64,000 nt of DNA from Escherichia phage JLBYU50. Location of the stretch: the sequence record OK272470.1. One strand, 5' to 3'. Position 1 is the stretch's first letter. Each line of letters starts with the position of its first letter. Below are positions 1,885 through 21,716 of this stretch, one piece after another. The translations under genes and the position numbers were made by a program. The notes under the pieces were generated by a model. The model was not told where the DNA came from. It did no database searches and saw only the letters and a list, made by a program, of their open reading frames with translations.

Positions 1885-2350
1885 TTTAACTACAATCAAG
1901 GTGTCTGATCTACCTGTAACAACATCTGTTTCAGACACAGATTATTTTGTAACAGATCAATCAGGCATCACTAAGAAAACATCATTACGTGTTCTTCTTG
2001 CGGGTGCTGGTGTTACACGAAATCGTCTTTCTGCAAGGGGTACTGTTACAAATACCCTAGCTTTAGATATTAGCACGGCAGAGTATTTCTCTGCCACTTT
2101 ATCTAGTCCAACTTGCAGTATTTCATTTAGTAATGTTCCAGTTACAACTAACATTGTTCAAAACTTTACACTATCCCTACGTCAAGGCAGTGGAGCAAAT
2201 AAAGTAACGTGGCCTCAATCTGTTAAATGGAGTTTTGGTCGCGCTCCTGTTTTGAGTTATAAACAGGGAGCTACAGATATTTTTGAATTTGTTAGTTATG
2301 ATAATGGAGCTACCTGGATAGGTAGTTTAGTGATGGCAGGAGTGATTTAA
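1877..2350 (+). CDS. structural protein, unknown
   Basis: ATGA-type overlap with flanking genes, co-oriented in structural module. Confidence 0.5.
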   Translation: MADLTTIKVSDLPVTTSVSDTDYFVTDQSGITKKTSLRVLLAGAGVTRNRLSARGTVTNTLALDISTAEYFSATLSSPTCSISFSNVPVTTNIVQNFTLSLRQGSGANKVTWPQSVKWSFGRAPVLSYKQGATDIFEFVSYDNGATWIGSLVMAGVI

Positions 2351-5226
2351 TGTCAAGAATTAAGCACAGAATTGACAATGTTTTTCAACTGATCGATGGA
2401 CATATTCAGTTCTTAGATCGTAATACAGGTTTAACTGTAGATCCTACAGTGCAACACTATGTATTAAACCCACAAAACGTTCTAGCTAATAACAGACACT
2501 TTATAAACTGGACTGCTCAAGAAGGGCAACCAAACGGGGATGCTACAACAGAAGGTCAATCCGTGCTTATTCTTGGTTGCGCTTATGCATACCTGGCTTC
2601 CGGCGATACAAAGTATTTAGACTCTGCTAAAAAATATTGGCAAGCCTATATAGATTACTTCTTTGGTGGTCAACCTATCCCAGATCCGCCAGCAAAGTAT
2701 CGCCCTAACTGGATTATTAACGGTAAAGAACCACGTCTTGCACATTATCCTCTTACAGATGATGGCTACCCTACACACGGAGGTTTTAAGGGTAGCTTAA
2801 TGACGTGGACTAACGGTAGAACAGTTATTCCTCATGGTGCTCCACATTGGGGAGAATACCTTGACAAAGCATGGTTTGCTTTTAATGGTAATCTAGGATG
2901 GAACTCTGTAAACGCTACAGTATATGCTGTTAATGCAGATGGTACAACAGATTGGTCTAAGAAGGGAGATCAATGGGATGTTGATTGGATCATTGATCGT
3001 CTAGGACGTAAAGTTGATTGGGATGGAAATATCTTAGAAGAAGGTTTTCCAACATCTCAATACGGAACAGTTCAACTAAAAAATACTTCTGTAAATGGTA
3101 CATATAAATTTAACTACGCGACTTGTAACCCTGTTGAACACGGTGGTTATTTAATGGAGCGTAACACTATGTGGCATAACAGACCAGTTAACGTTCCGGT
3201 AGAAATGGGCTTTCAGGATAATGCGTCAGATGCCGAAACTTGGTGGTGTGATGCTAATTACCTGATGTACCAAATTACAGGGGAAAGAAAATATTGGCTA
3301 TGCTGGCAGTCTTCACTGTTAGTGTGTCAAGATTATTCAAACATTGATATGTTTGATAAATTCTTCCGTAAGTCTACATATGCAACTATTCCGTTTACAG
3401 ATGGCATCTCTTACGATTATTCGTATCCATCTACAGCAATACCTAAATATTCAAGAGATACTTTAGGTTATATTGTTATTAGACAAGATGTTGCTGCTCA
3501 AACAACATTAGAACAGCAAGCCATTTGGTTTAAAGTTGATCAGAACTCTAAGTTACGAGTCCAGTTTCAAGGTGTAGATGACGCAGGACAGGGTATTCTT
3601 TTCCGTCCAGAGTTGGAATTAAGTAAGACCAAAGATGAAAATAACACAGTAACTTACCGCTGTGGCTTACCACTAGGTACAGCTAATATGACAAGCATGG
3701 ATATTCCACTATCCAGCTTTATGAGAAGTACCCCTCCTAGTGGTGGAACATATATTATCGCAGATCCGCGAATTATTGTTGACTGGGGTGACAATACTGT
3801 GGTACAATATAAGTATGTAACAGGTATTGCTGGAACTAATAATGACCAGATTGTTACTGCATCAATGGATACGGATGGTGGTATCACTGTTGGTTTTTGG
3901 TTAACTCCTACATCAAAAGCTAATGTTAAGTCTATTACATATAGAACATATGAAGATGACTTTAACATGACTATCACGGATGCTCAAGGTTGGAGATGGT
4001 GGGTTATGCTTCCTAAAACACAAGGAGCATGGAGTACGAAGACTTTATCAGCTTCTGATTTTAAGTTAAGTGCTTACCAGCCTAATCATCCAGATACAGA
4101 TCCTAAACCTTCAGCAATAAATCTTACTGCGGTAGATCAGGTAAATTTAGTTCTTGATACGGCTCCTGTAAATGGTTTAACAGGAACAATAGATTTCTAT
4201 TGTATTAACGATGTACCTGAAAGATATTCGTCATCTTCTGGTGATGATTATACCATGTACTTCCGTATTACTGTACAGGCTTCAAGTCCTCATACTGCTA
4301 AATTAGGTGATTGTACTATTATTGACTATAAATTAAATAGTCTTAATTACACACCAGGAATAATTCCATTCTCTAATATCAGTGACCCAAACACTGCATT
4401 ATACGATGGATGGCGTGGTATTCCATACCCAGGATACCAGTATCCTTCCTTATACTGTTTCGCAGGTAGGGATATTGATTGGACACGTTTAAACAACAGT
4501 ATTGATTTCTTGTATGATGCTCAAATGTGGTTTTATAACACGTTTGATCCTGTGATGCCTGGGCCTATGGCACAAGCATATGTGTGGGATCGTTGGGATG
4601 CAAGAAAATACGGTGAACCTAATACGTTTACAATGAAACACTGGAATGAAAAAGCGTGGGATGGTTATGAAGCTCGTGCATTCTACTGTGCTTGTCATGC
4701 TGTATACGAACTTGTACAAAGAGGAGAAACACCTCCTGAAAAACTAGTAACTGTTTGTAAAAATTGGATCAACTACCTTAAATGGTTCCAAGACAATAAT
4801 GATGGAAGAACACCAACTATCTTTAACCCAGATGGTACAGTTCTTGCTCCTATAGATGACTTTACTAGTCATATGTCTGCACTGTTTATGGCGGGTTGTT
4901 CAATCATGGGCTTGGCAGGTTATGATTCACAAATTCCAAACATTGGTATTGTAGCAGACAGATGTTTTGATCTGATTCAGCAAAACTATATTGTGCTTTC
5001 CCCTAACCATCCGATGAATGGTTCCTGGAGTGTTGCACCACGCCCAGATTCAGATAACGGAATGTTCTTTGGTTTCCATGCTGGAGAACTATTACGTGGT
5101 TTTGGTTTATATGCCTTGTATCGTAAACTAAACCCTCAAAACGCTTTACCAATTTTGGATAATAGTAACATACCAACACTAACTGTTCTAACTATGAATG
5201 ATATTAGTGTTGATGTAACCAAATAA
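2350..5226 (+). CDS. large virion protein, putative tail fibre/baseplate-associated carbohydrate-active protein
   Basis: 958-aa ORF, Trp/Tyr/Asp-rich, translationally coupled to neighbours. Confidence 0.55.
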   Translation: MSRIKHRIDNVFQLIDGHIQFLDRNTGLTVDPTVQHYVLNPQNVLANNRHFINWTAQEGQPNGDATTEGQSVLILGCAYAYLASGDTKYLDSAKKYWQAYIDYFFGGQPIPDPPAKYRPNWIINGKEPRLAHYPLTDDGYPTHGGFKGSLMTWTNGRTVIPHGAPHWGEYLDKAWFAFNGNLGWNSVNATVYAVNADGTTDWSKKGDQWDVDWIIDRLGRKVDWDGNILEEGFPTSQYGTVQLKNTSVNGTYKFNYATCNPVEHGGYLMERNTMWHNRPVNVPVEMGFQDNASDAETWWCDANYLMYQITGERKYWLCWQSSLLVCQDYSNIDMFDKFFRKSTYATIPFTDGISYDYSYPSTAIPKYSRDTLGYIVIRQDVAAQTTLEQQAIWFKVDQNSKLRVQFQGVDDAGQGILFRPELELSKTKDENNTVTYRCGLPLGTANMTSMDIPLSSFMRSTPPSGGTYIIADPRIIVDWGDNTVVQYKYVTGIAGTNNDQIVTASMDTDGGITVGFWLTPTSKANVKSITYRTYEDDFNMTITDAQGWRWWVMLPKTQGAWSTKTLSASDFKLSAYQPNHPDTDPKPSAINLTAVDQVNLVLDTAPVNGLTGTIDFYCINDVPERYSSSSGDDYTMYFRITVQASSPHTAKLGDCTIIDYKLNSLNYTPGIIPFSNISDPNTALYDGWRGIPYPGYQYPSLYCFAGRDIDWTRLNNSIDFLYDAQMWFYNTFDPVMPGPMAQAYVWDRWDARKYGEPNTFTMKHWNEKAWDGYEARAFYCACHAVYELVQRGETPPEKLVTVCKNWINYLKWFQDNNDGRTPTIFNPDGTVLAPIDDFTSHMSALFMAGCSIMGLAGYDSQIPNIGIVADRCFDLIQQNYIVLSPNHPMNGSWSVAPRPDSDNGMFFGFHAGELLRGFGLYALYRKLNPQNALPILDNSNIPTLTVLTMNDISVDVTK

Positions 5227-5234: not shown

Positions 5235-7394
5235 ATGAAACAGGCTATTTTTACTGTAACTCGAAATACGAGAGTAAATGCCAGTTCATTCAGCTATAAG
5301 ACCGTCGATGGAACGGCGGTCGCTGGTAGAGATTATGTAGCTAAACAGGGAACAGTAACGTTCCCTTCTGATGCAGATTCTGCTACTGTAGTGGTTGATG
5401 TATATGAACGTCCGGCAAACTCTTTAGATCTTTATTTTACTCTTGAGATTACTAGCATAAGTCAAAATAACATGATGATCAACGAAGAAATTCGTTGTGT
5501 TATTACGACTGATCAATCGAATACAACCCCACTAACTTGGCCTGTTGTGAAGTCTAGAATGTTTGATCCTAAGTTTTGGACAATAGATTCTCAAGCAACA
5601 GAGAGCTGTTCTATTATCTCTAATGGTGATTCTTTCACAGCAAGAATGGTTAATAGGACAGTGGCTGGTCTTGCTGGGATTATTTGGTCAACTTACGATA
5701 AATATGATCACAAAGGATTAGGCTACCAAGAACATTCTGACTTAAGTAAAGAGAAACTTTGGTTTAAAATGGAACTTAGTCAAGGTGTTCCTGGATTAAA
5801 AGAAGAAAAATTATTGCCATCCTTAACAGTGACACTGAAGGATGAAACAGTTCATTATGTATCTCTAAACTTTTATGCAGAAGAAGTTTCAGAGGACGGT
5901 AAAACAGCAACAATAAAATTAGATTTCTCAAATTTAAAATCTGGGCCAGAAAATGATATTGTTGTTGACACTACACAGATAGATAATATGTTCTTCTCCT
6001 TGATCTCCACAAGGTATCAAGAAATTGAAGATGTTATACCTGTAGACAATATGGATCTTTCCTTTAAGTTTACCATACTAGAGCCTGATACTGGTTACAG
6101 TATGATGAATATGGGTAATTTAAATGTTCCGGCGCACACCATAAGAATGTGTACATCTTATGATGATATGTATAACCTAACCCCAGAGCGAGTTATTTCT
6201 AACACCTATAGATTAGGTTATAGAGATATGATTAACCATTATAATGGTATGTCACACTATTATCAATTTAGTTGGGATGCTGGATCTAATAAATGGGCTT
6301 TGAACAGAACAGAATATTTAAACCCAGCAACAGAAGCCTGGTTTGACAATTTCCACGCTAATGCAAAAGCTATGGGCTACACAGTAATGAACTCCTTAAG
6401 TTTTGAACTTATGAGTACAGTGTGTCCTGTAGAATGGGTACAACATGCTTGGAATGATGATCTTGCTGCTACAGGTTATGAGCCACCAAGTTATGTTTTA
6501 TCTCCTTCAATTGATGAAGGGATGAATTATTTACAAGGTGTAATAAATAAGATAGCTTCTATATCCGCTGCCAATGATCTTCCTGTTATTATTCAGGTTG
6601 GTGAACCGTGGTGGTGGTATAACACAGCTACCAATCTACCGTGTATTTATGATTATACAACCAAAGTTGCATTTAATAATGAAACTGGATTATATGCACA
6701 AGATGTTGGTACAGTTAAGAATTATAAAACTGGTACACCATATGATGAATATTATGCATTCCTATCTAAAACATTAGGACTACGTGTTGCTAAGTTTGCA
6801 ACGGATACTAGATTAGCATATCCTGGAGCGAAAGTTACATTGTTACCATTTGTGCCATCCATTTTGGGTAATGGTATGATGGAGTTTGTTAACTTCCCTA
6901 AAGATTATTATATCCCAGAAAACTTTGACTTTTATTGTTCAGAATGTTATGACTGGTTGTTGGAAGGCAAGATGGAAAGATCTTTCGACGCTATCACAAT
7001 ACCTAATGAGCAACTAGGTTTTAGTTACGATAAGATACATTATCTTGCAGGGTTTGTTCCAGATGCAACTCTAGCACCATTATATGGCTTTGATCCTGAA
7101 TCAAACTATAGAACATATTTGTGGAAAATGATTATAGGCAATATTGTATTGAATGACCAGAAGTTTGTTGGTTTATATCAATACATATGGGCTTACCCAC
7201 AAATAATGCATGATTCAATAACTGTTCTTAATTCAAAATCCCAAGTGTTTTATATGGGTAATGTGCCTTTGAATTGCTACTTGCAAGATATCACTCTTAA
7301 ACAGGTAAATGTTGAGATTGCCACTATAAGTGGAATTACATTAGCCACTAAATCTGGAGAAGATTTAGTAACAACACAAAAATTTTATATATAG
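5235..7394 (+). CDS. virion protein with N-terminal Calx-beta-like domain
   Basis: Motif TVDGTAVAGRDYVAKQGTVTFPSDADSATV resembles Calx-beta; 719 aa. Confidence 0.5.
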   Translation: MKQAIFTVTRNTRVNASSFSYKTVDGTAVAGRDYVAKQGTVTFPSDADSATVVVDVYERPANSLDLYFTLEITSISQNNMMINEEIRCVITTDQSNTTPLTWPVVKSRMFDPKFWTIDSQATESCSIISNGDSFTARMVNRTVAGLAGIIWSTYDKYDHKGLGYQEHSDLSKEKLWFKMELSQGVPGLKEEKLLPSLTVTLKDETVHYVSLNFYAEEVSEDGKTATIKLDFSNLKSGPENDIVVDTTQIDNMFFSLISTRYQEIEDVIPVDNMDLSFKFTILEPDTGYSMMNMGNLNVPAHTIRMCTSYDDMYNLTPERVISNTYRLGYRDMINHYNGMSHYYQFSWDAGSNKWALNRTEYLNPATEAWFDNFHANAKAMGYTVMNSLSFELMSTVCPVEWVQHAWNDDLAATGYEPPSYVLSPSIDEGMNYLQGVINKIASISAANDLPVIIQVGEPWWWYNTATNLPCIYDYTTKVAFNNETGLYAQDVGTVKNYKTGTPYDEYYAFLSKTLGLRVAKFATDTRLAYPGAKVTLLPFVPSILGNGMMEFVNFPKDYYIPENFDFYCSECYDWLLEGKMERSFDAITIPNEQLGFSYDKIHYLAGFVPDATLAPLYGFDPESNYRTYLWKMIIGNIVLNDQKFVGLYQYIWAYPQIMHDSITVLNSKSQVFYMGNVPLNCYLQDITLKQVNVEIATISGITLATKSGEDLVTTQKFYI

Positions 7395-7402: not shown

Positions 7403-9976
7403 ATGTCAACTACAATTACTAATTTACCCGAAACATCAAAAGTTAATGGTTCTGATTACCTGGTTTTAGACCAACCTGATAAGACTGTTAAAAGCACAGT
7501 TTCCAACTTTCTTGCTGACACTGGGGTGGTTTTAGCCACCCAGTTGAAAGATACAGATGGAGCAGATTTAATACAATCCTCAAATGGTAATACTGTTCAG
7601 GAAGAGTTGAATAACAATCTTCTTAATGATCGTGAACAGTGGCATCGTAGTCTTGCTGAGGCAGGGTTAACCCTTGTCAACGGTAGCTTTGAAGAAGGGG
7701 CTACAGTAAACAATAAGACGGATGCTGTTTGGCATATTGCTGGTGGGCAGTGCTATACGTGGGGTGGTGAATTTCCTAAAACAGTAGCTGCTGGTTCAAC
7801 TCCAGAAACATCTGGTGGCATTGGTCTTGGTGCATGGGTTAGTGTTGTGGATATGTCATTAAGGGATAATCTTTCAAACTCCAGTAATGATAATTACGGT
7901 GATGCGCTGGTAGCAGTTAAGCAGCCGTATACTACCGCAATAAGTAGAACGCAGCATGATAAAAATGCTGATGTACTTGATATTTCGGATTTTGGTGTAG
8001 ACATAACTGGTGCTTCTGATGAGGGTAGTAAGTTACAACAGATATTTAATGAGTTGGCCGCAGCAGGCAAGACTATTCGTATGCGCGGTTCTGTAAAGAC
8101 TACTATTAACCTAGATATAAGGTGTAACGTGCTGTTTGAGCAGGGTTTCAAACTAACTGGCGTGAAACTAGAAACTGGACCTCAGACTTACATTAATATT
8201 TTTAATCGTAATGTAGATGTAAGCCATATTATCCTAGATGGTATTGTTATGTGTTTCTACCCCGTAAGTTCCACTACTACTGTTAGAAACAAAAGATGTA
8301 TTACGTTTACATCCAACACGTTAGAAGATTCATGTGTTCAGGTGGGCGGTAATAACCTATCTGTACGTAACGTGTTAATTTCTAACAATACTTTTAAGAA
8401 CTCTGGGTCACGTATTCCAACAGCAATTCGCCTAACTAATGTCTCAAATATTGAGGTGAGTTTTAACCTTATCCATGAGTATGGTAGACCTATTTACCAA
8501 ACAGCAACCCGCTCTTTCTCCAACTACAATGTCAATATACACCACAATAATATGGTTTGTGAGTATGGTATAACTCTTGCGGGTACTACTGCTTTTAGGG
8601 TTAGTAAGTTCACAATTGCTGACAATGACATTGTTTGCGAGGTAAGAAATACAGCAACAGGTGGTCGGGATGGTATTGATGTAGTTTATGGTACTAGTGG
8701 TTTGATTACTAACAATAACATAAGGACAAACGGAAGAAGCCTTAGACTGTCTAATACTAAGGTAGATGTACTGTTTAACGATATGATATCCAGCGCAACC
8801 AGTGCATTCTCAGTATTAATGGCGAGTTGTTATGAGTCATCATTTGTTGGTAACACTGTTTTCAATAACTCAACTGCTGAAATTATTGTTGTACATGTGC
8901 AGGATGAAGCTGGTGGGCTTTACCGGAGTAATAACATTCGTGTGGAATCTAATACAATCAAGGGATTTGGTAGGCTGATTCGGGTATTAGATACAAAGGA
9001 TTATGTTGTCATCAATAACAGATTAATCAGAACATCAAACAATGGTAATGCAGTTATTATTGCGGATGGGACTAGTGACAGAGGCCAGGTGCATAGCAAT
9101 GTGGTAGTTGGTCCTGCTGGAGTGGTAGTATCTGATATAGGCGGAACCAACAATGCAACAACCCCTGCTGATACACTGCTGAGTGTTGCAGCTAACAGCA
9201 AGACCATAACAGCCGTGGCGAATGGATTAGTTGATCCAGACTTGAATAATTCGAAGGCATTCATCTTCAATGTTCAGGTGTCTGATGTTCAACTATTACG
9301 TGCGGTATCTTCTACAGGCTCAGGAAATGCTAAAACCGTATCTCAGTTCATGTCGGGTATAACTGGGGCAACTCTGGCATGGAATGGTACTGCCTTCCTA
9401 TCAGAGATGTCTGGACCACCAGATATATTTGTGAATGGTGTACTTCAAGATTCCTATGGTGCAGAAGACTATGTGTTCTACAGATCAGGGATGCTTATTG
9501 ATTCCCAGAATAAACTCAGTGTTAGAGACTTCCAGTGTATTGGGGATGGGGATACCATAAACGATGGGACTGGTAATATGACCCTTCGTAATATGGCAGC
9601 AGCACAATCGGCTGAGGGCGCTATTCACAGTGCTTTCTTCCGTGCTCCTCTTGTTATGAATGGCTCAGTGTATGACCCTACAGTAACAGGTATTGCATCT
9701 TCAGATTTGTTTAGCACAGCTCTAGATCCAAGAATGGCTATAGGACAAAAAGCTGATGGAACCTACGTTATTATTTGTGTTAATGGCAGAAACGCAGATG
9801 GGGTAAGTCCAGGCTGCACTATGCAGCAGCTAGCTTCTAAGTTTGTAGCCCTTGGTTGTATCAACGCAATGAATTTGGATGGCGGCGGTTCAGCTACTCT
9901 TTGGTATAACGGTGCTATCATTAATGACCCGGCGGATGGAAGTGAACGCCCTGTTTACCATTGTATGTATGTGTAA
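7403..9976 (+). CDS. tailspike: N-terminal anchor, right-handed beta-helix, C-terminal phosphodiester glycosidase (NAGPA)-like domain
   Basis: N-terminus MSTTITNLPETSKVNGSDYLVLDQ typical of tail fibre anchors; Asn/Gly/Thr-rich beta-helix repeats; C-terminal NAMNLDGGGSATLWYNG motif. Confidence 0.6.
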   Translation: MSTTITNLPETSKVNGSDYLVLDQPDKTVKSTVSNFLADTGVVLATQLKDTDGADLIQSSNGNTVQEELNNNLLNDREQWHRSLAEAGLTLVNGSFEEGATVNNKTDAVWHIAGGQCYTWGGEFPKTVAAGSTPETSGGIGLGAWVSVVDMSLRDNLSNSSNDNYGDALVAVKQPYTTAISRTQHDKNADVLDISDFGVDITGASDEGSKLQQIFNELAAAGKTIRMRGSVKTTINLDIRCNVLFEQGFKLTGVKLETGPQTYINIFNRNVDVSHIILDGIVMCFYPVSSTTTVRNKRCITFTSNTLEDSCVQVGGNNLSVRNVLISNNTFKNSGSRIPTAIRLTNVSNIEVSFNLIHEYGRPIYQTATRSFSNYNVNIHHNNMVCEYGITLAGTTAFRVSKFTIADNDIVCEVRNTATGGRDGIDVVYGTSGLITNNNIRTNGRSLRLSNTKVDVLFNDMISSATSAFSVLMASCYESSFVGNTVFNNSTAEIIVVHVQDEAGGLYRSNNIRVESNTIKGFGRLIRVLDTKDYVVINNRLIRTSNNGNAVIIADGTSDRGQVHSNVVVGPAGVVVSDIGGTNNATTPADTLLSVAANSKTITAVANGLVDPDLNNSKAFIFNVQVSDVQLLRAVSSTGSGNAKTVSQFMSGITGATLAWNGTAFLSEMSGPPDIFVNGVLQDSYGAEDYVFYRSGMLIDSQNKLSVRDFQCIGDGDTINDGTGNMTLRNMAAAQSAEGAIHSAFFRAPLVMNGSVYDPTVTGIASSDLFSTALDPRMAIGQKADGTYVIICVNGRNADGVSPGCTMQQLASKFVALGCINAMNLDGGGSATLWYNGAIINDPADGSERPVYHCMYV

Positions 9977-10016: not shown

Positions 10017-10048
10017 AAAAAAAAACCCCGCTTCGGCGGGGTAATCAT
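10017..10048. terminator. stem-loop ccccgc-ttcg-gcgggg flanked by A9 run
   Basis: Perfect GC hairpin after tailspike gene; T-tract would be on the opposite strand, so orientation is ambiguous. Confidence 0.45.
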
Positions 10049-11899: not shown

Positions 11900-11901
11900 A
11901 A

Positions 11902-12544: not shown

Positions 12545-13528
12545 ATGGCAAAGCCACAATACTACCCTGACTGGGCGACACAAACAGTAACCCTCCCAGG
12601 AACGGGAAACACAAACAAGATTAGACCAAAAGAAACCATCCGTAATGTTGGTATGGACTTTGGTCAGATTATGACTTGTGAAGAAATGAACTGGATCTTA
12701 AACAATATTGGGTCTTGGATTCGCTATATGCAAGATGAATTCTTCCCAACATTGCCTACGACATATCTTCCTATAGTCGGTACTAAAATTACAATGGCAG
12801 GTGATGCTACAGGTGAAGTTACATGGAATGGTAATGCTGCTGTAACATTGTCTATTCAAGTAGTAGATAACAGCCATAATCACTTATCAGCTAACATTAC
12901 AGACGCAACATCAAACCAAGTTGTAGGGAATGTCCTTGTTAAGCGTGATAATGGTGGTGCTATCTATGCAGGTGATATTTACACTTGTGGTACAGGTGCT
13001 ACAGATCCTGCAACATTATTTTTTAGAAACTACAACGGACAAACAGTAGGTAATATGTCCTCTGAACCAGGTGCAGGTGGTCAACTCTATATTTATAGAA
13101 TAAATCCATCTACTGGAGGAACATCTTGTGGAGTCCGTTTGTATGATGCAGGTTATGTTTTAATAGACAATCCTCGTTCTAATTCTGGTCAAGATACTGG
13201 TAATGGTAATGCTCTTGTAAGATTAGATTATCTTAACTCAAGACTAAACTCATTGCAAAGCACACTGCAAAATAATATTAACAACGTTAATAGCAACTTG
13301 CAAGGCCAAATTAATAACATTAACAATAGAGTTTCTTCTGTTGTGTCTGGTATTCGTCTAGGAGCACGTATCCAAGCTGGTGTGTCTGAGTCTCGTTTCT
13401 ATGCTGGTCACGTGATCACAGGTTGGGGCTTTGGTGATAAGAAAGAACTTCGTGGTGCTTGGTATTGGTCAGCCCCGCTACAATATTATATTAATGGTAG
13501 CTGGATAACAGTAACCAACGTTTCATAA
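12545..13528 (+). CDS. tail fibre protein (short)
   Basis: Asn/Gln-rich heptad region NNINNVNSNLQGQINNINNR; RBS aaggag. Confidence 0.5.
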   Translation: MAKPQYYPDWATQTVTLPGTGNTNKIRPKETIRNVGMDFGQIMTCEEMNWILNNIGSWIRYMQDEFFPTLPTTYLPIVGTKITMAGDATGEVTWNGNAAVTLSIQVVDNSHNHLSANITDATSNQVVGNVLVKRDNGGAIYAGDIYTCGTGATDPATLFFRNYNGQTVGNMSSEPGAGGQLYIYRINPSTGGTSCGVRLYDAGYVLIDNPRSNSGQDTGNGNALVRLDYLNSRLNSLQSTLQNNINNVNSNLQGQINNINNRVSSVVSGIRLGARIQAGVSESRFYAGHVITGWGFGDKKELRGAWYWSAPLQYYINGSWITVTNVS

Positions 13529-13537
13529 GGAGAGTCT

Positions 13538-14089
13538 ATGAAAAAAGATGTTATTTTTACAGGTTTTGAATTGTACGAACCGGAATTAACAGAGGAAAAC
13601 ATTCTTTATCTTTCTGTTGGCGGTGGTTTTTTGCAAGACAAGGATGGTAATGATTGGTATCAACTTCAAAAAACCTTGATGGCTGAATATCCCGACGCTT
13701 ATTTTATTACCTTAGATGATAATAATATTGTACGTGGTGCTACTAAAGATGTTACTACCTATTTCCCTGCCGGACAATCTATTTTAGTTACATATAATGC
13801 ACCAGATAAAATAGAAGATGAAAGTAATATTGGCTCTTGGCAATATGTTAAAGGTAAATTTGTTCCTCACAATAGTCTTGCTATTGAAGATGCTACTCTT
13901 AAGTTAGAAAAGGAGTTAACTTGGGCTACGAATCAAGTGTCTGCGATTCAAGATTTAGAGGAATTACAAGGTTTATCTGAAGAACAAAAAGATTGGTTAG
14001 GAAAAGTTAAACTCTATCGTGCAACATTAATTCAAATTAACGTTGAAGATGCACCTAATATAACTTGGCCTACAAGACCTAAGAAATAG
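13538..14089 (+). CDS. hypothetical protein (possible tail fibre assembly factor)
   Basis: RBS aaggagag; position downstream of fibre gene. Confidence 0.4.
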   Translation: MKKDVIFTGFELYEPELTEENILYLSVGGGFLQDKDGNDWYQLQKTLMAEYPDAYFITLDDNNIVRGATKDVTTYFPAGQSILVTYNAPDKIEDESNIGSWQYVKGKFVPHNSLAIEDATLKLEKELTWATNQVSAIQDLEELQGLSEEQKDWLGKVKLYRATLIQINVEDAPNITWPTRPKK

Positions 14090-14098: not shown

Positions 14099-14440
14099 AT
14101 GGAGCTAACAGAAGTATGGGATATCGCTAAAGAGGCGATTATCCCTCTTATTGGCGTAATCTGGGTGGTCTTCAAACAGAAGATAGATGATATGGCAAGT
14201 GATTTGGATAAAATGGAAGACAAATACCGCGAACTAGAAAAGAAGTTGGTGTTTGTTGAATCCACTTATGCTACCAAAGCGGAACTTGCTCAAATGCTTA
14301 ACCAGATCAACTCTACATTAATGGCAAATAACACTGCCTTAGAACAGAAGATTGAAAAAATAATGGATTTAAAAAATGCTCCTGTTCAATTAATGTTAGA
14401 GGAGATTACGAAGCGCACACAAAGTAAGGACAAAAATTAA
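14099..14440 (+). CDS. membrane-anchored coiled-coil protein
   Basis: N-terminal hydrophobic helix IIPLIGVIWVVF followed by charged coiled-coil. Confidence 0.45.
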   Translation: MELTEVWDIAKEAIIPLIGVIWVVFKQKIDDMASDLDKMEDKYRELEKKLVFVESTYATKAELAQMLNQINSTLMANNTALEQKIEKIMDLKNAPVQLMLEEITKRTQSKDKN

Positions 14441-16854
14441 TGGCGAATTTTCCAACATATCCTGCTACGACACTAGAACAAGGTGTTGATCTGGTTATAT
14501 TCTCGTCTAACCAGATGCATGATGTTATTAATGGGGATGCTACAGCAACTGTAGAAACCGAAACAGGTTTAATACCTACACTGCGTAAAGCACTTGTTGA
14601 TAACTTCTTCTTTAAGAGTCCTGTTGCTTGGTCAGCAGGATCAACTGAAACTGTATTTAACCAGTTACGTTATTTTGAAAACGGTATCTTGAGTGGGTAC
14701 TATTATGCCCCATCTGCCACTACTGCGAACCCTGTACCTATGCAGGGAACACCTGTAGGAGACAGTAACTGGACTCTGTACGCTCTTAAAACTGAACAGT
14801 TAGCTTCAGATGTGTATCCTTGGTATTTTAAAGGTGCTACAGGATATGAAACAGAAATCAGTCCTCCTTATATCTTTGATAATGCTATTGTCACCATTAA
14901 CGGTGTAATTCAGATTCAAGGTGAAGCATTTACTATCAAAGATAGTAAAATTATTCTGGCAGAACCATTAGGTTTAGATCCGTCTACTGGTCTACCTAAC
15001 AAATTGTTTGCTTTTATTGGTAAAACAACAGCCTCTACTTCTTACGTAGAGAAAAACCTTTTGTCATCCACCACTGGTGCAGCAATGGTTGGTCTTCCAT
15101 CTGGAGGCAACCTGTTACAAGCTCAATACTTTGTAACGCCTGAGCAGTTTGGTGCAATTGGTGATGGAGTTACCGATGATACTCAAGCAATTTTAAAAAC
15201 CATTACTTTCGCTAACACGAATAACATTCAAGTACGTGCAGATAAGAATTATAGATTCACAAGCTCAATTGCTATGTCTGGTATTCGTTGGTATGGTGGT
15301 ACATTCACTGGTAACGGTGGAACAATGATTTCTACTGTGTCCTGTTGGATGGAAAACGTTCGCTTTGAAAAATGTTATGTTAAGATGTTAGGTGGTGATT
15401 GCCGATTCTATCGTAATATCTTCTCCAATGCAACATCTACAGCAGCATTCTTAATGCAAGCAATGACAAGTGAAGGTACGTTGGACTTCAGTTACAACGA
15501 AATGTATGGTTGTAAATATGCGATCCTGCAACAAGGTACTGGAGAAGTAATGACCTACGGGCGTTACTCTAACAACTATATTCACGATATTAAAGGTGAT
15601 GCTATTGAACTTAACGTAGTTCAAAAACACTACACTGAAGGTTTGATTATCGAGAATAACCACATTGCTAACGTAGATGCTTCTGGACAAGGGGCAAACT
15701 GGGGTATTGGTATTGGTGTAGCAGGTAGTGGCCCATATGGTGTTGATGTTCCTGATTCACAATATGTACGTAATTTCAGTATCGTTGGGAATAGGGTTTA
15801 CAATTGCCGTCAATGTTTACACGTTGAAATGGGTAAAAACTTCACAATACGTGATAATGAAGTTTATCCTAACACAGCAGTTTCAACAGGTACAGGTTTA
15901 ACTACTTGTGGTGTTGCATTATACGGATGCCAAGATTTTGAAGTTGATGGTTTAACTGGTTATCTGCTTAATGATCCATCTGTTTCAACACGCATGGTCT
16001 TTATTGACTGGGGTGTTAACAGTGGAAGATATGCGGGGCCACCAATTAACTTTACAATTAAGAATTTGGATATTCCAGAATCTTCAATTGAGATTGCAAC
16101 ATCTGGATCAGATGACTGGGAAAACTCTACAATTGTTAGTAATATCAATTGTAATGTTTTTAAATGGCGTGGGCTACCATCTAGCTCTACCTTTAATAAT
16201 ATTCGTTGCCGTAGTATTGACTTTATTGGTCAACACGGAAGCGGAGAAGGAAGTGGTGGCGGTTTCTATACTCGCAGCCAATTCACGTATATGAAGTGGG
16301 TAGGATGTACAGCACTTAGCGGAGATGAAACAACAGTTTCTTTTGCTAAAATCTACACTGATCGTTGCGATCAGGTTGGAAATAACTTTGGTGTTCCAAC
16401 TGCTGTTGATGGTACAGGTCATCGTGGGCCAGTTTTAACTACTATTTCTGAACAATATTTTACAGCTTATGATGAATTCCCAGGTGGGCGTGAATTCCCT
16501 ACTGGAACAGTTATTCATTGTGCAAGCGGTAAAAAACATGTTGTTACAGTAGGTGGTGCTTTCTTTAGTGCCAACGAGAAAATAAAAGCAACTGTTACAG
16601 GTCAAACCTATCTACAGTCTAATGCTTTAAACTGGGCTAGTAATGGCTACGCTAAAGCAGCAGGTACTAAGATTGTTATTCCAGGTGCAGGTGCAAATGG
16701 CGGCGATCTTGTGACAACTATAGCACGTGCTACATATGTGACAAATAGTTTGTACACAATAGATATTGCAGATCCAATTGTAACACCTACAGCAGAGAAT
16801 ACACAAATTAAAGCTCTGAACCCTGTTACTTTTGTTACTGTCAATAATGCTTAA
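14440..16854 (+). CDS. tailspike with pectate-lyase-like right-handed beta-helix
   Basis: 804 aa; repeated N/G/T-rich beta-helix rungs; terminator downstream. Confidence 0.6.
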   Translation: MANFPTYPATTLEQGVDLVIFSSNQMHDVINGDATATVETETGLIPTLRKALVDNFFFKSPVAWSAGSTETVFNQLRYFENGILSGYYYAPSATTANPVPMQGTPVGDSNWTLYALKTEQLASDVYPWYFKGATGYETEISPPYIFDNAIVTINGVIQIQGEAFTIKDSKIILAEPLGLDPSTGLPNKLFAFIGKTTASTSYVEKNLLSSTTGAAMVGLPSGGNLLQAQYFVTPEQFGAIGDGVTDDTQAILKTITFANTNNIQVRADKNYRFTSSIAMSGIRWYGGTFTGNGGTMISTVSCWMENVRFEKCYVKMLGGDCRFYRNIFSNATSTAAFLMQAMTSEGTLDFSYNEMYGCKYAILQQGTGEVMTYGRYSNNYIHDIKGDAIELNVVQKHYTEGLIIENNHIANVDASGQGANWGIGIGVAGSGPYGVDVPDSQYVRNFSIVGNRVYNCRQCLHVEMGKNFTIRDNEVYPNTAVSTGTGLTTCGVALYGCQDFEVDGLTGYLLNDPSVSTRMVFIDWGVNSGRYAGPPINFTIKNLDIPESSIEIATSGSDDWENSTIVSNINCNVFKWRGLPSSSTFNNIRCRSIDFIGQHGSGEGSGGGFYTRSQFTYMKWVGCTALSGDETTVSFAKIYTDRCDQVGNNFGVPTAVDGTGHRGPVLTTISEQYFTAYDEFPGGREFPTGTVIHCASGKKHVVTVGGAFFSANEKIKATVTGQTYLQSNALNWASNGYAKAAGTKIVIPGAGANGGDLVTTIARATYVTNSLYTIDIADPIVTPTAENTQIKALNPVTFVTVNNA

Positions 16855-16856
16855 TT

Positions 16857-16880
16857 AAAAAGGGGCGAAAGCCCCTTTAT
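16857..16880 (+). terminator. rho-independent terminator
   Basis: aggggc-gaaa-gcccct hairpin followed by TTTAT. Confidence 0.65.
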
Positions 16881-16895: not shown

Positions 16896-18857
16896 GTGAT
16901 TTTAACACGTCCAAATAGTGCCATTGCAGACATGGTAGAGTCTCGCTATAGAAAGCGTAGAAGTTTTGCAAGTGGTTTTACCTTAAGAGATGCTCGTGAA
17001 GCATTGCTCTTTGAAGCTGACGGTAACTACTATCAGTGGAAAGGTTCTCTACCTAAAGTTGTACCTGCTAACTCTACTCCTACATCTACTGGAGGGATTT
17101 CAGATACAGCTTGGAAAAATGTGGGTAATGCAGATGACATTGCTCAAATAGAATCAGAATTAGATGCTATTGAAGCTGAAATTGAAGATCTTAGAGAATC
17201 CATTCCAGAAGCTGGTAAATCAGCTTACCAGATTGCCGTAGACAATGGTTTCCAAGGTACTGAGACAGACTGGTTGGCTTCTTTAAAAGGTGATCCAGGT
17301 GCTCCATTAAAGCTGCTAGGGACGCTATCTAATACCAACCAATTACCTACAACTGGAAACAATGCAGGAGATGCATGGATTGTAGGCGAGAATATGTATG
17401 CTTGGGATGGTACTGCTTGGAGAAAAGTAAACTCACAGGGGCCAGAAGGTAAATCAGCTTATCAAGTTTGGCTTGCAGCAGGAAACCAAGGTACAGAACT
17501 AGATTATCTTGCTTCAATTAAAGGTGATAAAGGGGAACCTGGCCCAGAGGGGCCACAAGGTGTGCCAGGTAACAATGCTAATGGTTTTGATTACCAAGGT
17601 GCAGCTAATTCCGTTTCAGATCTTCCTTCTGCATCTCCTGGAAACACATCTCAAGCATGGAGTATTGGTACATATCTATACGTGTCAAACGGTGTAGAAT
17701 GGATCAATATGGGCGCTATAGTGGGGCCAAAAGGAGATAAAGGCGACAAAGGAGATAAGGGTAACACTGGTGATTCTGCTTATCAAGTCTGGTTAAATGC
17801 TGGTAACGTTGGTACTATTGACGAATATATTGCCTCTCTGAAAGGAGAAAAAGGTGATAAGGGAGACAAGGGTGATCAAGGTGAGCAGGGTATACAAGGC
17901 TTGACGGGGCCAACTGGTGCAGGGTTGACAATTATTGATATTCTGACTGACACTTCTGAACTACCACAAACTGGAGAAGATGGTGATGGTTATCTGATCA
18001 ATAATGAACTTTGGGTTTGGTTGCAAGGAGCCACACAGTGGACAAATGTTGGTCGTTTAGCTGGTACTCCAATCACTGCAAAAGGACACGTTGCGTCTGC
18101 AAGTGCACTTCCTCCTACAGCCAATTACGGTGATGCTTATCTGACGGAAGATACAGGTCATCTTTACATTTACACCTATGATGAACAAACTCAAACTGCT
18201 GAATATGTAGATATGGGTAGTTTGAAAGGTGATAAGGGTGAAAAAGGTGACGCTGGTACTAACGGTACAGACGGTGCAACTTGGATTGTTAAAACAACAG
18301 ATCCAATCTCTAGTGATGGTAAACAAGGTGATTATGCCTTTAATATCTCCACTGGCGAGGTGTTCTTAAAAACATCTGCAACTGCCTGGACTTCTCAAGG
18401 TACACTGCCTAGCATCACAGATGCACCTAGTGACGGTAAAATTTATGCTCGTAAAGATGGAGCATGGGAAGAACTCACTAGTTCTGTAGATGGTCAAGAT
18501 ATAGTTCCAACAAAAGTAACAGCTAATTTTATAGAGGTTACAGCATACACCAACAACTCTGTTACAGGTGACTGGACACCTCCAGGAACACATAACATGA
18601 ATGTGTTGAATCTTACTGGTAACGCTACTATAAAAGCATGGCCTGGTGTCGAAGATAGCACAAAACCTAAACCATTCTCTGCAATAGTTTATCTTATCCA
18701 AGATGCCACTGGGGGTCATACTGTTACTTTAGATCCATCTTACAAAGTAATTGGTTCTAGTGATATTAATACAGATCCTAACGGAGTAACAATACTACAA
18801 CTAACATATTGTGGTATTGGCGATTACGTGGATGCTATTGTTGCTAAACGCACATAA
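16896..18857 (+). CDS. collagen-like repeat tail fibre (GTG start)
   Basis: Gly-X-Y tracts GDKGEPGPEGPQGVPG and GPKGDKGDKGDKGNTG; RBS aaggag 7 nt before GTG. Confidence 0.65.
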   Translation: MILTRPNSAIADMVESRYRKRRSFASGFTLRDAREALLFEADGNYYQWKGSLPKVVPANSTPTSTGGISDTAWKNVGNADDIAQIESELDAIEAEIEDLRESIPEAGKSAYQIAVDNGFQGTETDWLASLKGDPGAPLKLLGTLSNTNQLPTTGNNAGDAWIVGENMYAWDGTAWRKVNSQGPEGKSAYQVWLAAGNQGTELDYLASIKGDKGEPGPEGPQGVPGNNANGFDYQGAANSVSDLPSASPGNTSQAWSIGTYLYVSNGVEWINMGAIVGPKGDKGDKGDKGNTGDSAYQVWLNAGNVGTIDEYIASLKGEKGDKGDKGDQGEQGIQGLTGPTGAGLTIIDILTDTSELPQTGEDGDGYLINNELWVWLQGATQWTNVGRLAGTPITAKGHVASASALPPTANYGDAYLTEDTGHLYIYTYDEQTQTAEYVDMGSLKGDKGEKGDAGTNGTDGATWIVKTTDPISSDGKQGDYAFNISTGEVFLKTSATAWTSQGTLPSITDAPSDGKIYARKDGAWEELTSSVDGQDIVPTKVTANFIEVTAYTNNSVTGDWTPPGTHNMNVLNLTGNATIKAWPGVEDSTKPKPFSAIVYLIQDATGGHTVTLDPSYKVIGSSDINTDPNGVTILQLTYCGIGDYVDAIVAKRT

Positions 18858-18858
18858 T

Positions 18859-18885
18859 CAAAGCCCCTTCGGGGGCTTATTGTTT
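18859..18885 (+). terminator. rho-independent terminator
   Basis: aagcccc-ttcg-ggggctt hairpin then ATTGTTT. Confidence 0.65.
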
Positions 18886-18896
18886 AAGGAGATTAA

Positions 18897-21716
18897 ATGT
18901 ATCCTATTCCTTTATTTATGTCAACAACATCAGCTTCAGTAGTAACAGCTACATCTATAACCACTTCCTCTATTGGTATTGCAATAGTTGGTAGTAAAAA
19001 GCAACTGACATACACAGTTTCACCGGAAGATGGTGCGTTATTTGATATAGCTTTTTCATCTTCAGATAATACCAAAATGGTTATAGATAATAGTGGTATG
19101 ATGGAGTTTGTTGCCGAAGGTGGTTTTGATGCAATAATGACAGCTAAAAATAATTTAGGTGCTGTCTTAACTGATCAATCTGGTGGTTATGCTTCAGAAT
19201 TAAGCGTGTACACTGAAAGTCTATCAGCTATGGATGTAGGCACTACTCAACAGTTGGTTGCTACAATCAGTCCAGAAGGTGCTAAAGATCTTCCAGACAT
19301 GGTAATTACGTACACCACAACAGATCCAGAAGTAGCTACTGTAAGCCCTACAGGATTAATAACTGCTCTTAAAGATGGTAATTGCCGTATAGGTTGTACT
19401 GCAACTTATCAAGGAACAGTGGTGGCCTCTGATAGTTCTTATTTAGGTGTTAATGCTATTCCTGTTATTTCTAATGTAACAGCCGTGGCAAACAGCTATG
19501 GAGACGTTCGTGTTGCTTGGGATGTAGCTGATCCGCTAGATGGTGATACTTATACTGTAGAAGTATTAGATTTAAGTAATAATAGTGTTCAGTGGACTAC
19601 AACAACCACGAATACTTACGCTTACTTTGATATCTCTGACTCTATTCCTCTTTATGGGTTTGCTCCAACATACCTTAAAATTAGCGTTAAGAGCACCAAA
19701 GCAGCAGCCGTTATCTTTAATAACTCAATAGCTACAGATGATTCGTTCATTAAAGAAGTTATTGTTTTTGCTGGACAAGATAACGTAAATGCACACTTTA
19801 CAGAACTATCTGGTGCAAATAAAGCAGCAATGAGTAGCACAACAGCCCGTAATGCATATGCTACGCAACGTGGTTTAGCAAATGCTGAAGTTCTTCCGTT
19901 AAATACAGCTTCTGGATCATCAGCAGCAGATAAATATGCTGACGATAAAGCTGGAACAGGTACACCAGACAACTACTGGTATGATCTGGATAACACAGCA
20001 GATGGGCCATGCTTAACTAACTTTATCACTAAAGTCACACCTTATGCAAGTAAGGTTAAAGCCATTATTTGGGGACAAGGTGAAAATGATGCTGTATCAT
20101 CATCTTCAACTGTTGCAGGTAGATACAGTAACACTACACGTTACCATGATGCTACGATAGCTATCTTTGATAAGATGCGTACAATAGTTCCTGCTTCTCA
20201 AGCAAAAATTGTTTGGCAGATCCTGGGACGTTCTTATTTATATGGTGTAGAAGTTAATGGTGTGGATTGGCAGAAGTACAGAAATGTACAAAGAACCATC
20301 TCTACAGCACGTGATGATGTTATCATTGGTTCTTGGGTAGATGGTGCTGAACGTTACAGTGGTTATGTTTATGAAGAAGGTATTGATGGTCGTATCCATT
20401 ATATTTCTTCTGTATACCAAACAGCAGCTACAAAACTTGCTAAATCAGCAGCAGACGGTACAGACCTAACATCAACGTCACCTGTTTGGGTTGATATGGC
20501 TGTTCCAACTGGAGCAACAGCTACTTCCCAATCTAATCAAGATACAATTTTAGTATGGGATGCTCAAGGCTATAGTAAACACTACTTCCGTAATATTAAC
20601 GTCTTAACAGCATCTGTATTAACTGAACAAACGCTTAATACGAACAGCTATACGTTTACCTATGCAGATCAAGTAGAACAATATGGTTTTGCAGCAGGAA
20701 CTACTATATTTGATGTTGCATATTATGATGAAGCAAATGATGTGTTATCTCCTTTAGTACGTTTTAATGTTAACGTTACAGCAGGAACCGTAGAAGATAA
20801 ACCTGTAGTGATGGATTATGATTTAACACAAGAAACTCTTCCATCAGATGTTAAGGTTAATGGTGGGAACTCTTTTGCTCGTGCTTCTGGAGATACACTT
20901 GTAGCCACTAACACCTTGGTTGCTCCGTTGGAGTATGTTGGCACTACCCCTGTAGGTAGACGTGTAACAGCTAACACAGCTACACAAATTTTTGTCAACA
21001 ACGCCTTAACAAGCGCAAGCCCGTGGGTAAAGACCAACTTAACTGTTTCAACTTCATCTGATAAATCTCCGGCTGGAACTACTGCCAATGTATTCAAATT
21101 AACTCCGACTACAACATCTGGTAGTCATATCTTAACTGCAACATATACTAACGCGTACAACATATATGCCGGACGTAACTGGTCTGCCTCTGTTTTCTTG
21201 AAAGCGAACGGGATTACTAAGGCCAAACTAAGATTAAAAGCAGGAACTGAAGTTAATGAGGGTACTTTTGATTTAGCAGCAGGTACATTTACAGGAAGTG
21301 AAGCTAATATTATATCTATGGGTAACGGTTGGTATCGTGCTATTCTGCATAAAACAGGGATAGCCAAACAGTCCTCCATAAGTTTTGAAATAATTGCCTT
21401 GGATGCAACTGGTGCGGAGATTTTCGCTGGGGATGGTACTAGTAACCTTGCAGTTTGGTTGCCACAGCTTGAAGGTGCTCCTACAGGAGAAACATCAAAA
21501 GCTGGAGCGCCTTATGTCTGCACATATCCTGGAAGTTTAGGAGGAGTATCCTTCACTATACCAAGGAACGGACATACTGGTGTGGATGTTTACTATTCCA
21601 ACGGGGACGTTGTTCGTGACGTATTCTCTGGTACGGCATCTACTTGGACAATAAACTACTCCAGCTTGTACGATTGGGGATCAGTCTTTATTACAGGTTT
21701 GAAATATTACGACTAA
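18897..21716 (+). CDS. tailspike with Ig-like domain and SGNH/SASA-type carbohydrate esterase-like domain
   Basis: Ig-like segment (ATVSPTGLITALKDGNCRIGCTATYQG); FAGQDN and WGQGEND motifs resembling sialate-O-acetylesterase GQSN / WxQGESD. Confidence 0.55.
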   Translation: MYPIPLFMSTTSASVVTATSITTSSIGIAIVGSKKQLTYTVSPEDGALFDIAFSSSDNTKMVIDNSGMMEFVAEGGFDAIMTAKNNLGAVLTDQSGGYASELSVYTESLSAMDVGTTQQLVATISPEGAKDLPDMVITYTTTDPEVATVSPTGLITALKDGNCRIGCTATYQGTVVASDSSYLGVNAIPVISNVTAVANSYGDVRVAWDVADPLDGDTYTVEVLDLSNNSVQWTTTTTNTYAYFDISDSIPLYGFAPTYLKISVKSTKAAAVIFNNSIATDDSFIKEVIVFAGQDNVNAHFTELSGANKAAMSSTTARNAYATQRGLANAEVLPLNTASGSSAADKYADDKAGTGTPDNYWYDLDNTADGPCLTNFITKVTPYASKVKAIIWGQGENDAVSSSSTVAGRYSNTTRYHDATIAIFDKMRTIVPASQAKIVWQILGRSYLYGVEVNGVDWQKYRNVQRTISTARDDVIIGSWVDGAERYSGYVYEEGIDGRIHYISSVYQTAATKLAKSAADGTDLTSTSPVWVDMAVPTGATATSQSNQDTILVWDAQGYSKHYFRNINVLTASVLTEQTLNTNSYTFTYADQVEQYGFAAGTTIFDVAYYDEANDVLSPLVRFNVNVTAGTVEDKPVVMDYDLTQETLPSDVKVNGGNSFARASGDTLVATNTLVAPLEYVGTTPVGRRVTANTATQIFVNNALTSASPWVKTNLTVSTSSDKSPAGTTANVFKLTPTTTSGSHILTATYTNAYNIYAGRNWSASVFLKANGITKAKLRLKAGTEVNEGTFDLAAGTFTGSEANIISMGNGWYRAILHKTGIAKQSSISFEIIALDATGAEIFAGDGTSNLAVWLPQLEGAPTGETSKAGAPYVCTYPGSLGGVSFTIPRNGHTGVDVYYSNGDVVRDVFSGTASTWTINYSSLYDWGSVFITGLKYYD

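Follow-up and report, generated by a model that had tools for sequence, protein, structure and literature searches.

What does a phage do with half a dozen long tail fibre and tailspike genes in a single late block, and do their products act together, in alternation, or in part as scaffolding? The question is raised by a locus of Escherichia phage JLBYU50 (sequence record OK272470.1), of which a stretch of 64,000 nucleotides (nt) was analysed (the window; all coordinates are window positions). An original prediction, made from the DNA letters, had placed six consecutive tail fibre/tailspike genes at 2350-21716 and read them as a multi-receptor, multi-depolymerase adsorption apparatus with a broad or switchable host range. 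Our analysis makes it highly probable that 1877-21743 constitutes a distal baseplate and receptor-binding module, whose receptor-binding proteins would be co-expressed and carried jointly by the baseplate wedge. What we established here is orthology, domain content, motifs and the limits of the cassette; for virion locations and receptors we rely on published work on orthologues 97-99.5% identical to the proteins in question, and enzymatic competence is inferred.

By its sequence, the phage is placed in the genus Justusliebigvirus (phi92-like myophages) of the Stephanstirmvirinae. When 2350-21716 was compared by megablast with 50,697 phage records, Escherichia phage vB_EcoM_PHB05 (NC_052652) matched over the full query (100%) at 95.8% DNA identity, with KKE7M, PaulScherrer/Bas60 (MZ501100), ALITA, alia and others matching at ~98% over 85-88% of it. 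Matches at 60-80% identity in Campylobacter and other phages were also returned, which we would guess to be low-complexity similarity of collagen repeats. The gene order follows phi92 gp140-gp153 one for one and is common to all four relatives compared for synteny (phi92, PHB05, PaulScherrer and PD06). Proteins of the block are 97-100% identical to those of phi92 (as are, among them, the orthologues of gp140-gp142, gp145-gp147 and gp149-gp151), with the exception of the spike in the gp143 slot, the chaperone gp148 (~81%) and a protein of 939 amino acids (aa) that is split and truncated in phi92; five of the six large proteins are 97-99.5% identical to gp141, gp142, gp150, gp151 and gp152/153. 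DNA divergence from phi92 is confined to three segments, namely 7555-10171 (the slot cassette), 19487-19704 (218 bp) and 20781-21718, of which the latter two are missing from phi92. The features of the locus are as follows, with percentages denoting amino acid identity to the named phi92 protein:

1877..2350, + strand: small tail-fibre protein, 157 aa, orthologue of phi92 gp140 (100%); phrog_9017
2350..5226, + strand: gp141 orthologue, 958 aa (99.3%); (alpha/alpha)6 glycoside hydrolase (GH)-like barrel with inserted beta-sandwich domains
5235..7394, + strand: gp142 orthologue, 719 aa (99.2%); Calx-beta, NCTSP_N and TIM barrel
7403..9976, + strand: tailspike in the gp143 slot, 857 aa; Tail_spike_N and NAGPA
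10025..10042, + strand: terminator hairpin CCCCGCTTCGGCGGGG, 3' boundary of the tailspike cassette
10167..10412, + strand: gp144-like small protein, 81 aa, a "membrane protein" in the annotation of relatives
10412..12531, + strand: baseplate wedge pair, orthologues of gp145 (495 aa) and gp146 (209 aa) (99%); Baseplate_J, phrog_6, phrog_4056
12545..14089, + strand: short tail fibre gp147 (327 aa, 'fibre III', 98.5%) and chaperone gp148 (183 aa); identity to phi92, Caudo_TAP
14099..14440, + strand: gp149-like protein, 113 aa; orthology to relatives
14440..16854, + strand: colanidase tailspike, gp150 orthologue, 804 aa (99.5%); match to PDB 6E0V
16862..16875, + strand: stem-loop GGGGCGAAAGCCCC 3' of the colanidase gene, read directly from the sequence
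16896..18857, + strand: collagen-like tail fibre, gp151 orthologue, 653 aa (97.4%), GTG start; Tail_spike_N and GXY runs
18861..18878, + strand: terminator-like stem-loop 3' of the 653-aa gene (hairpin scan)
18897..21716, + strand: multidomain protein, 939 aa, full-length form of phi92 gp152+gp153; Big_2 and SGNH/SASA fold
21720..21743, + strand: terminator-like stem-loop closing the + strand late block (hairpin scan), converging with - strand genes

All six open reading frames (ORFs) of the original prediction thus lie exactly where it had put them, on the + strand and at the predicted lengths, but they are not consecutive, as six further genes at 9977-14439 (~4.5 kb) divide them: the 81-aa gene, the 495-aa Baseplate_J wedge gene and its 209-aa partner, the 327-aa short fibre, the 183-aa Caudo_TAP chaperone and the 113-aa gene. 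The short tail fibre and chaperone (12545-14089), as well as the 157-aa gp140-like protein, had been left out of the predicted set. Its statement that each gene is accompanied by a terminator or ribosome-binding site (RBS) holds, with AGGAG/AAGGA-type RBSs at all six ORFs and G+C-rich stem-loops 3' of the 857-, 804-, 653- and 939-aa genes; the three upstream genes (958, 719 and 857 aa) abut, with RBSs alone at their junctions. Terminator-like sites in the region number 15 against a shuffled expectation of 12.2 +/- 3.9, i.e., there is no overall excess, and the case for the four post-gene stem-loops therefore rests on their position just 3' of stop codons. A promoter scan returned 56 matches, fewer than the 64.7 in shuffles, and was not used as evidence. 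Strand polarity flips at ~21.7 kb and ~56 kb of the window, matching the GC skew.

A published framework exists into which such a block fits. For phi92, a multivalent apparatus of co-expressed fibres and spikes, a 'nanosized Swiss army knife' with a broad host range, is credited to Schwarzer et al. 2012 (J Virol 86:10384), and the same multi-receptor model for phi92 or its genus is found in the Eryne announcement, BASEL I, BASEL II and the phi92 cryo-electron microscopy (cryo-EM) paper (Chen et al. 2026, PMC13450770). The fibres are reported as co-expressed (Eryne announcement, BASEL I), the lysis range of the genus as very broad (Eryne announcement, BASEL II, Sellner et al.) and the genus as dependent on the N4 glycan receptor (NGR) (BASEL II, Sellner et al.). 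Cryo-EM of phi92 resolved three co-expressed fibre sets, a wedge heterotrimer built from gp145/gp146, and fibre III as gp147 (Chen et al. 2026, PMC13450770). JLBYU50 shares with phi92 both the gene order and the co-expressed-fibre concept, and the predicted multi-receptor apparatus with several glycan-active modules and a broad host range is in keeping with this model, given orthologues 97-99.5% identical.

The main departure from phi92 is the 857-aa spike, which stands in the slot that in phi92 holds the endosialidase gp143 and shares with the latter only aa 1-54 (96% identity, with the rest unrelated); identity to PaulScherrer covers aa 1-170, while that to PHB05, which carries the same NAGPA-type spike, runs over the full length at 88%. 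A genus-specific anchor (aa 1 to ~75) is followed by Tail_spike_N (aa 92-149; E=4.3e-19), an adaptor present in both the 857- and 653-aa proteins and also in CBA120 TSP1-4 (Ackermannviridae) and Gamaleyavirus G7C gp63.1/gp66 (PDB matches 5W6F, 5W6H, 4OJ5 and 4QNL). At the other end lies the NAGPA module that had been predicted, and which is real (PF09992, aa 680-857; E=4.6e-25, 89.2 bits vs. a cutoff of 25). Between these Pfam domains are a match to the N-terminal segment of the Sf6 tailspike (aa 160-220) and a weak NosD signal (20.7 bits, under the 23.6 cutoff), with a beta-helix body probable at ~aa 230-640. The spike contains DGGGS, the invariant catalytic motif of NAGPA (PMC13474241), at aa 826-830 (nt 9878-9892), and this is kept in all nine homologue clusters. 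Because the motif is intact both here and in all homologues, it is plausible that the spike is an active glycosyl-phosphodiester hydrolase. Sugar-1-phosphate linkages are found in some Escherichia coli K- and O-antigens, which is a lead as to substrate and not a result.

Beyond the anchor, the spike is rare. Its receptor-binding part (aa 170-857) occurs in one other deposited phage among the 50,697 records, namely PHB05 (two records), the next matches being Erwinia phages at 27-30% identity, and the NAGPA-type module forms nine protein clusters in a collection of 5.8 billion proteins. One of these belongs to a P2-like myovirus/prophage contig (L006, 8001-10780; 97% by the search measure, 94.5% over aa 75-857), where the gene lies directly 3' of gpI, and another to an N4/G7C-like podovirus contig (L007, 8001-10680; 87% by the search measure, 84.6% identity). 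The cassette (window 7625-10042) has its breakpoint at aa 75-94, and its aa 75/94-857 are 85-95% identical to those of L006 and L007; moreover, ~65 nt 3' of the stop codon, hairpin CCCCGCTTCGGCGGGG included, are kept after the same cassette in PHB05, L006 and L007, and a related hairpin lies 3' of the other slot alleles in PaulScherrer and phi92. Since the cassette is shared with L006 and L007 at this level, we judge from sequence comparison that it moves, with its terminator, among P2-like, N4-like and phi92-like architectures. An anchor that stays constant, a receptor-binding domain that can be exchanged and a terminator motif conserved 3' of the gene make up the modular tailspike principle set out, Justusliebigvirus included, in the accessible text of Pas et al. 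2023 (PMC10408124); the NAGPA-type receptor-binding module falls outside the O-antigen-typed subtypes named in that text.

Several observations concern the surroundings and possible sources of the cassette. PaulScherrer, ~98% identical outside the slot, bears a different allele there, coding for a spike of 624 aa with a 101-aa ORF 3' of it. In PHB05 (L001, 10815-11650), the cassette is followed by another gp144-like gene (87% identical) and by 69 aa left over from a NAGPA C-terminus (93% identical), an arrangement that looks like a recombination scar; the JLBYU50 window, unlike PHB05, shows just one gp144 gene and lacks a NAGPA remnant. The cassette DNA had zero matches in 5,426 complete E. 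coli genomes, and a common E. coli prophage origin at the DNA level was rejected on this ground, while one E. coli protein from a third-party annotation (TPA) record is 64-67% identical to the spike. Likewise, tRNA-associated mobility was rejected, with no tRNA genes detected across window 1-64000.

The gp142 orthologue supplies what would be the conserved receptor contact. Its 719 aa comprise Calx-beta (aa 4-91, E=1.3e-9), NCTSP_N (aa 109-285, E=4.7e-21) and TIM-barrel_NCTSP (aa 299-660, E=7.7e-82), meaning that the predicted Calx-beta domain is genuine but had been assigned to the wrong protein (the 958-aa one), and that NCTSP_N and a TIM barrel take the place of the beta-helix that had been proposed for the 719-aa product. 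The motif GMSHY is found at aa 338; this has been reported as a perfectly conserved NGR-specific motif, with phi92 gp142 given as an example and convergent evolution suggested (bioRxiv 10.64898/2026.04.02.716166). By analogy with phi92 gp142, we take the 719-aa protein to be the receptor-binding protein for NGR.

The 939-aa protein is more composite, with two Ig-like domains (Big_2, confirming the predicted Ig-like module), an FN3-like domain, an SGNH/SASA fold at ~aa 285-520, beta-domains and an optional C-terminal domain. Its AlphaFold2 (AF2) model has a predicted local distance difference test (pLDDT) score of 71, is good at aa 20-630 and poor at aa 630-743, and finds N4 gp65 as its best Foldseek match (E=3.8e-24). 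The predicted SASA-like esterase is borne out as regards the SGNH flavodoxin-like fold but not its nucleophile, as block I reads GQDN (FAGQDN; aa 291-298, nt 19770-19790), with D295 in place of the nucleophilic Ser, where strand 287-293 passes into helix 295-305. GQDN is found in all close relatives and GGDN in homologues P0152-P0154, while distant fused homologues carry GQSN or GQSH. The SASA Pfam model scored 14.4-16.2 bits on the protein itself, below its gathering cutoff of 24.8, and matched 10 of 22 relatives (best E=1.6e-5); a PDB sequence search with the esterase-like segment alone returned N4 gp65 and no SGNH enzyme. Esterase activity thus appears doubtful because the canonical nucleophile is missing, and the domain may be a pseudo-esterase that serves in glycan binding. 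In some deposited genomes the homologue bears the label 'tail carbohydrate esterase'. Further downstream, aa 694-863 match NF048003 'GTA_spike_fiber' (70.1 bits vs. a cutoff of 36), within a C-terminal domain (aa 629-939; 20781-21716) that is present in PHB05, alia and PaulScherrer but missing in PD06 (a 628-aa homologue) and phi92. In phi92, lack of 19487-19704 (a 218-bp deletion) splits the gene into gp152 and gp153, and the last 938 bp are lost as well; in JLBYU50 the gene is intact.

These two proteins have a common relation to N4, for which gp64 and gp65 (PDB 9LC0, 9YF4/5) are sheath-forming heterodimers of a non-contractile tail. In BLASTP comparisons (N4 sequence L005, 6758-12192), aa 356-608 of the 719-aa protein aligned with gp64 107-367 (29.6% identity, E=5e-32), aa 269-344 with gp65 340-416 (GMSHY included) and aa 106-159 with gp65 55-109; for the 939-aa protein, aa 277-451 aligned with gp65 428-603, aa 192-610 with 619-1059 and aa 534-632 with 1082-1291. 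Jointly they cover gp64 107-367 and gp65 55-109, 340-416, 428-603, 619-1059, 1082-1171 and 1203-1291, an extent far greater than the 59-76-aa shared domain of the 2026 preprint (bioRxiv 10.64898/2026.04.02.716166). Fused homologues also occur (P0156, P0157, P0163 and P0164), uniting NCTSP_N, TIM barrel and an esterase-like part, in P0156 together with a Mu Gp48 baseplate domain. The two systems share NGR as their glycan receptor but differ in that (i) the N4-type modules are here divided over two genes 11.5 kb apart in a contractile-tailed phage, such that a sheath role is not expected, and (ii) N4 gp65 carries a Ser (GESQ) in its first esterase-like repeat, at the position of the Asp in the 939-aa protein. 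A bolder interpretation, which we find possible and offer tentatively, is that the N4-like module set of gp142 and the 939-aa protein reflects shared ancestry or horizontal gene transfer (HGT) of the whole NGR machine and not the convergence suggested in the preprint, that fibre II and the fibre I arm of phi92 are formed from these proteins and gp141 instead of by trimeric fibres, and that the NAGPA spike represents an uncharacterised depolymerase class directed at glycosyl-phosphate capsules or O-antigens.

Two further proteins are more conventional members of the apparatus. In the 804-aa gp150 orthologue, an N-terminal anchor (aa 1-179) precedes the catalytic body and a C-terminal TSP_Ig-like domain, with aa 180-804 matching PDB 6E0V 'Bacteriophage Phi92 gp150' (E=0), a WcaM-like segment at aa 358-551 (E=1.5e-28) and membership in phrog_6117 'colanic acid degradation'. 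The 653-aa fibre displays Tail_spike_N (E=3.3e-21), Collagen (E=7.5e-8) and a weak Fibritin_C signal (E=0.0012, 19.4 bits, below the 21-bit cutoff), with no enzyme domain in the Pfam search; the predicted collagen-like module is real, as seen in four GXY runs (aa 210-227, 277-294, 317-343 and 445-462) and in 9-nt collagen-coding repeats at 17730-18250. The description of all six genes as tail fibres or tailspikes accordingly suits the 857- and 653-aa proteins (via Tail_spike_N) and the 804-aa protein (via gp150), yet not so readily the 719- and 939-aa proteins, which resemble N4 gp64/gp65, or the 958-aa protein with its GH-like barrel.

This last protein, the gp141 orthologue, yielded zero Pfam or NCBIfam matches even at E<=1, zero PDB sequence matches, and could not be placed by sequence in any GH family of CAZy or Pfam. 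Its AF2 model is nonetheless confident (pLDDT 87.8, predicted template modelling score [pTM] 0.84, from a 73-sequence alignment) and describes an (alpha/alpha)6 GH-like barrel interrupted by beta-sandwich domains at ~aa 353-660, a module absent from the original prediction. The fold class is that of (alpha/alpha)6 glycoside hydrolases GH48, GH105, GH88, GH8 and GH76, with 8-12% identity to the fold matches. The family counts 309 homologues; phages and prophages of Enterobacter, Pseudomonas, Stenotrophomonas, Gluconobacter and other bacteria encode members that are 44-57% identical over their full length, whereas within Justusliebigvirus the protein varies by <1%, unlike the slot spike. Many Asp, Glu, Trp, Tyr and Arg residues are invariant in the alignment, with D64, E68, D294, E296, D336, D750 and E913 as candidate catalytic acid/base residues. 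Some homologues are fused to Tail_P2_I (PF09684; P0088 and P0105), to gp142-type NCTSP domains (P0096, 1557 aa) or to PF21722 (in ~1600-aa proteins), and these fusions hint that gp141 may dock on the wedge and carry gp142. Because the family is widely conserved and partly fused to Tail_P2_I or NCTSP, the 958-aa protein is probably a conserved peripheral baseplate or fibre-base component and not a host-specific fibre.

The remaining genes of the block belong to the wedge and its attachments. The 495-aa wedge protein matches Baseplate_J (E=3.5e-11) and the 183-aa gp148 matches Caudo_TAP (E=1.4e-9); the short fibre and chaperone are homologous to Mu GpS/GpU, and the outer-core glucose of lipopolysaccharide (LPS) has been proposed as secondary receptor (BASEL I). 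The gene for gp148 (13538-14089) encodes a protein ~81% identical to those of phi92 and PHB05 and 97% identical to that of PaulScherrer, while the adjoining short fibre has 98.5-98.8% identity to each of the three; this difference between the chaperone and its uniformly conserved neighbour indicates local mosaicism in gp148. Of the small proteins, the 157-aa product matches phrog_9017 'tail fiber protein' (E=1.3e-69), with phi92 gp140 regarded as a fibre-like candidate (Chen et al. 2026, PMC13450770); the 81-aa gp144-like protein is 96-100% identical to those of phi92, PHB05 and PaulScherrer; and the 113-aa protein is 99-100% identical to relatives, with no significant family match. Outside the block, the phi92 DNA polymerase gene carries a 733-bp insertion relative to window ~25920 (gene 25069-27648, - strand), giving a product of 1104 aa vs. 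859 aa here, possibly an intein or mobile insertion.

A model for the operation of the apparatus can be drawn from these data. All proteins of the block would be made late, from one co-oriented block, and mounted on the wedge. The gp142 orthologue would bind the conserved NGR via its N4-gp65-like GMSHY segment and gp64-like TIM barrel, thus affording O-antigen bypass. The 857-aa spike would fill the one freely exchangeable slot, with a genus-specific anchor leading into a mobile cassette that ends in the terminator hairpin, and its beta-helix and NAGPA-type domain would most likely bind and cleave a capsule or O-antigen containing glycosyl-1-phosphate linkages. The 804-aa gp150 orthologue would degrade colanic acid, while the 653-aa fibre and the 939-aa protein would provide extra contacts, probably of a binding-only nature; the 958-aa GH-like barrel would be a conserved part of the fibre base, with a conserved glycan as its possible target. 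Finally, the short fibre gp147, folded with the help of chaperone gp148, would bind the LPS core, its rearrangement triggering sheath contraction, as has been proposed for phi92, where both fibre III and the baseplate periphery would rearrange (PMC13450770; BASEL I). Host range would then change between phages via swapping of the slot cassette and gain or loss of the 939-aa C-terminal domain.

Several points weigh against this model of a jointly mounted receptor-binding module. The apparatus of JLBYU50 is predicted from its genes, and even for phi92 the cryo-EM assignments leave four of the six without a proven position in the virion: fibre II was left without assignment, gp143 was inferred as the tip of fibre I, and gp141, gp142, gp152 and gp153 were never named (PMC13450770). 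The enzyme-like reading of the 958-aa barrel and 719-aa TIM barrel lies at the level of fold, the beta-helix of the NAGPA-type spike is weakly supported (NosD falling below cutoff), and the 'colanidase' label derives from WcaM similarity together with a 'potential role' in the literature (Chen et al. 2026, PMC13450770).

One alternative holds that just a subset of the proteins are receptor-binding proteins, with the 958-aa and possibly the 719- and 939-aa proteins being mainly structural elements of the baseplate or fibre base, their enzyme-like folds being relics or generic glycan-binding surfaces, and the number of specificities being nearer three or four. The breadth of the 958-aa family, with its Tail_P2_I and NCTSP fusions, and its near-constancy within the genus speak for this, as do the sheath-forming role of N4 gp64/gp65, to which the 719- and 939-aa proteins are closer than to any other solved structure, and loss of the SGNH block I nucleophile. 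However, gp142 with its NGR-specific motif is a published NGR receptor-binding protein (bioRxiv 10.64898/2026.04.02.716166), the GTA-spike-fibre-like C-terminus of the 939-aa protein comes and goes between phages in the manner typical of a receptor-binding tip, and the invariant residues of the 958-aa family fit a preserved glycan-binding or active site. We regard this alternative as unlikely, though it retains some weight.

At the opposite extreme, the locus could encode six independent depolymerase or esterase fibres, each active on a different O-antigen or capsule. It is true that five of the six have an enzyme-like fold or domain, namely the GH-like barrel, the TIM barrel, NAGPA, the colanidase and SGNH. 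Yet the 653-aa fibre is without an enzyme domain; Asp stands for the SGNH Ser in all close relatives, with GQSN/GQSH confined to distant homologues; five of the six proteins are near-invariant across the genus and therefore cannot track variable O- or K-antigens; and the known targets, NGR and colanic acid, are conserved glycans. This makes the extreme form quite improbable, and leaves of the predicted multi-depolymerase apparatus several glycan-active modules, from which the GQDN-bearing SASA-like block and the 653-aa fibre are to be set apart.

Genetic switching within one phage, be it by phase variation, invertible segments or diversity-generating retroelements (DGRs) acting on fibre genes, has next to no probability, given that it was suggested by the original prediction only and nothing in its favour was found, with (i) no long inverted repeats flanking fibre segments, no template/variable pair and no invertase- or DGR-type repeat architecture, the sole repeats being the collagen-coding 9-nt units, (ii) no recombinase or reverse-transcriptase domain in the scanned flanking ORFs or in the annotations of this block in relatives, and (iii) a single co-oriented late block, with the literature reporting co-expressed fibres (Eryne announcement, BASEL I). 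Host range shifts between phages by cassette exchange and not by switching within a phage.

That phi92-like phages possess a multi-fibre apparatus is already known, and near-identical loci have been deposited and annotated. Less documented are the NAGPA-type slot cassette, the extent of N4 gp64/gp65 sharing and the Ser-to-Asp exchange in the SGNH domain. The last of these cautions against use of the label 'tail carbohydrate esterase', while the overlap of gp142 and the 939-aa protein with N4 bears on the unassigned fibre II of phi92 and on the question of homology or convergence between the NGR recognition of podoviruses and that of myoviruses. The slot cassette, with what appears by its intact motif to be a NAGPA-type phosphodiester glycosidase, is rare, and all three details are potentially useful to specialists. 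Ultimately, this window is one more example of an apparatus in which conserved O-antigen bypass by way of NGR and a depolymerase for colanic acid are joined by a single plug-in slot that takes a strain-specific spike, and which is relevant to phage therapy and host-range engineering.

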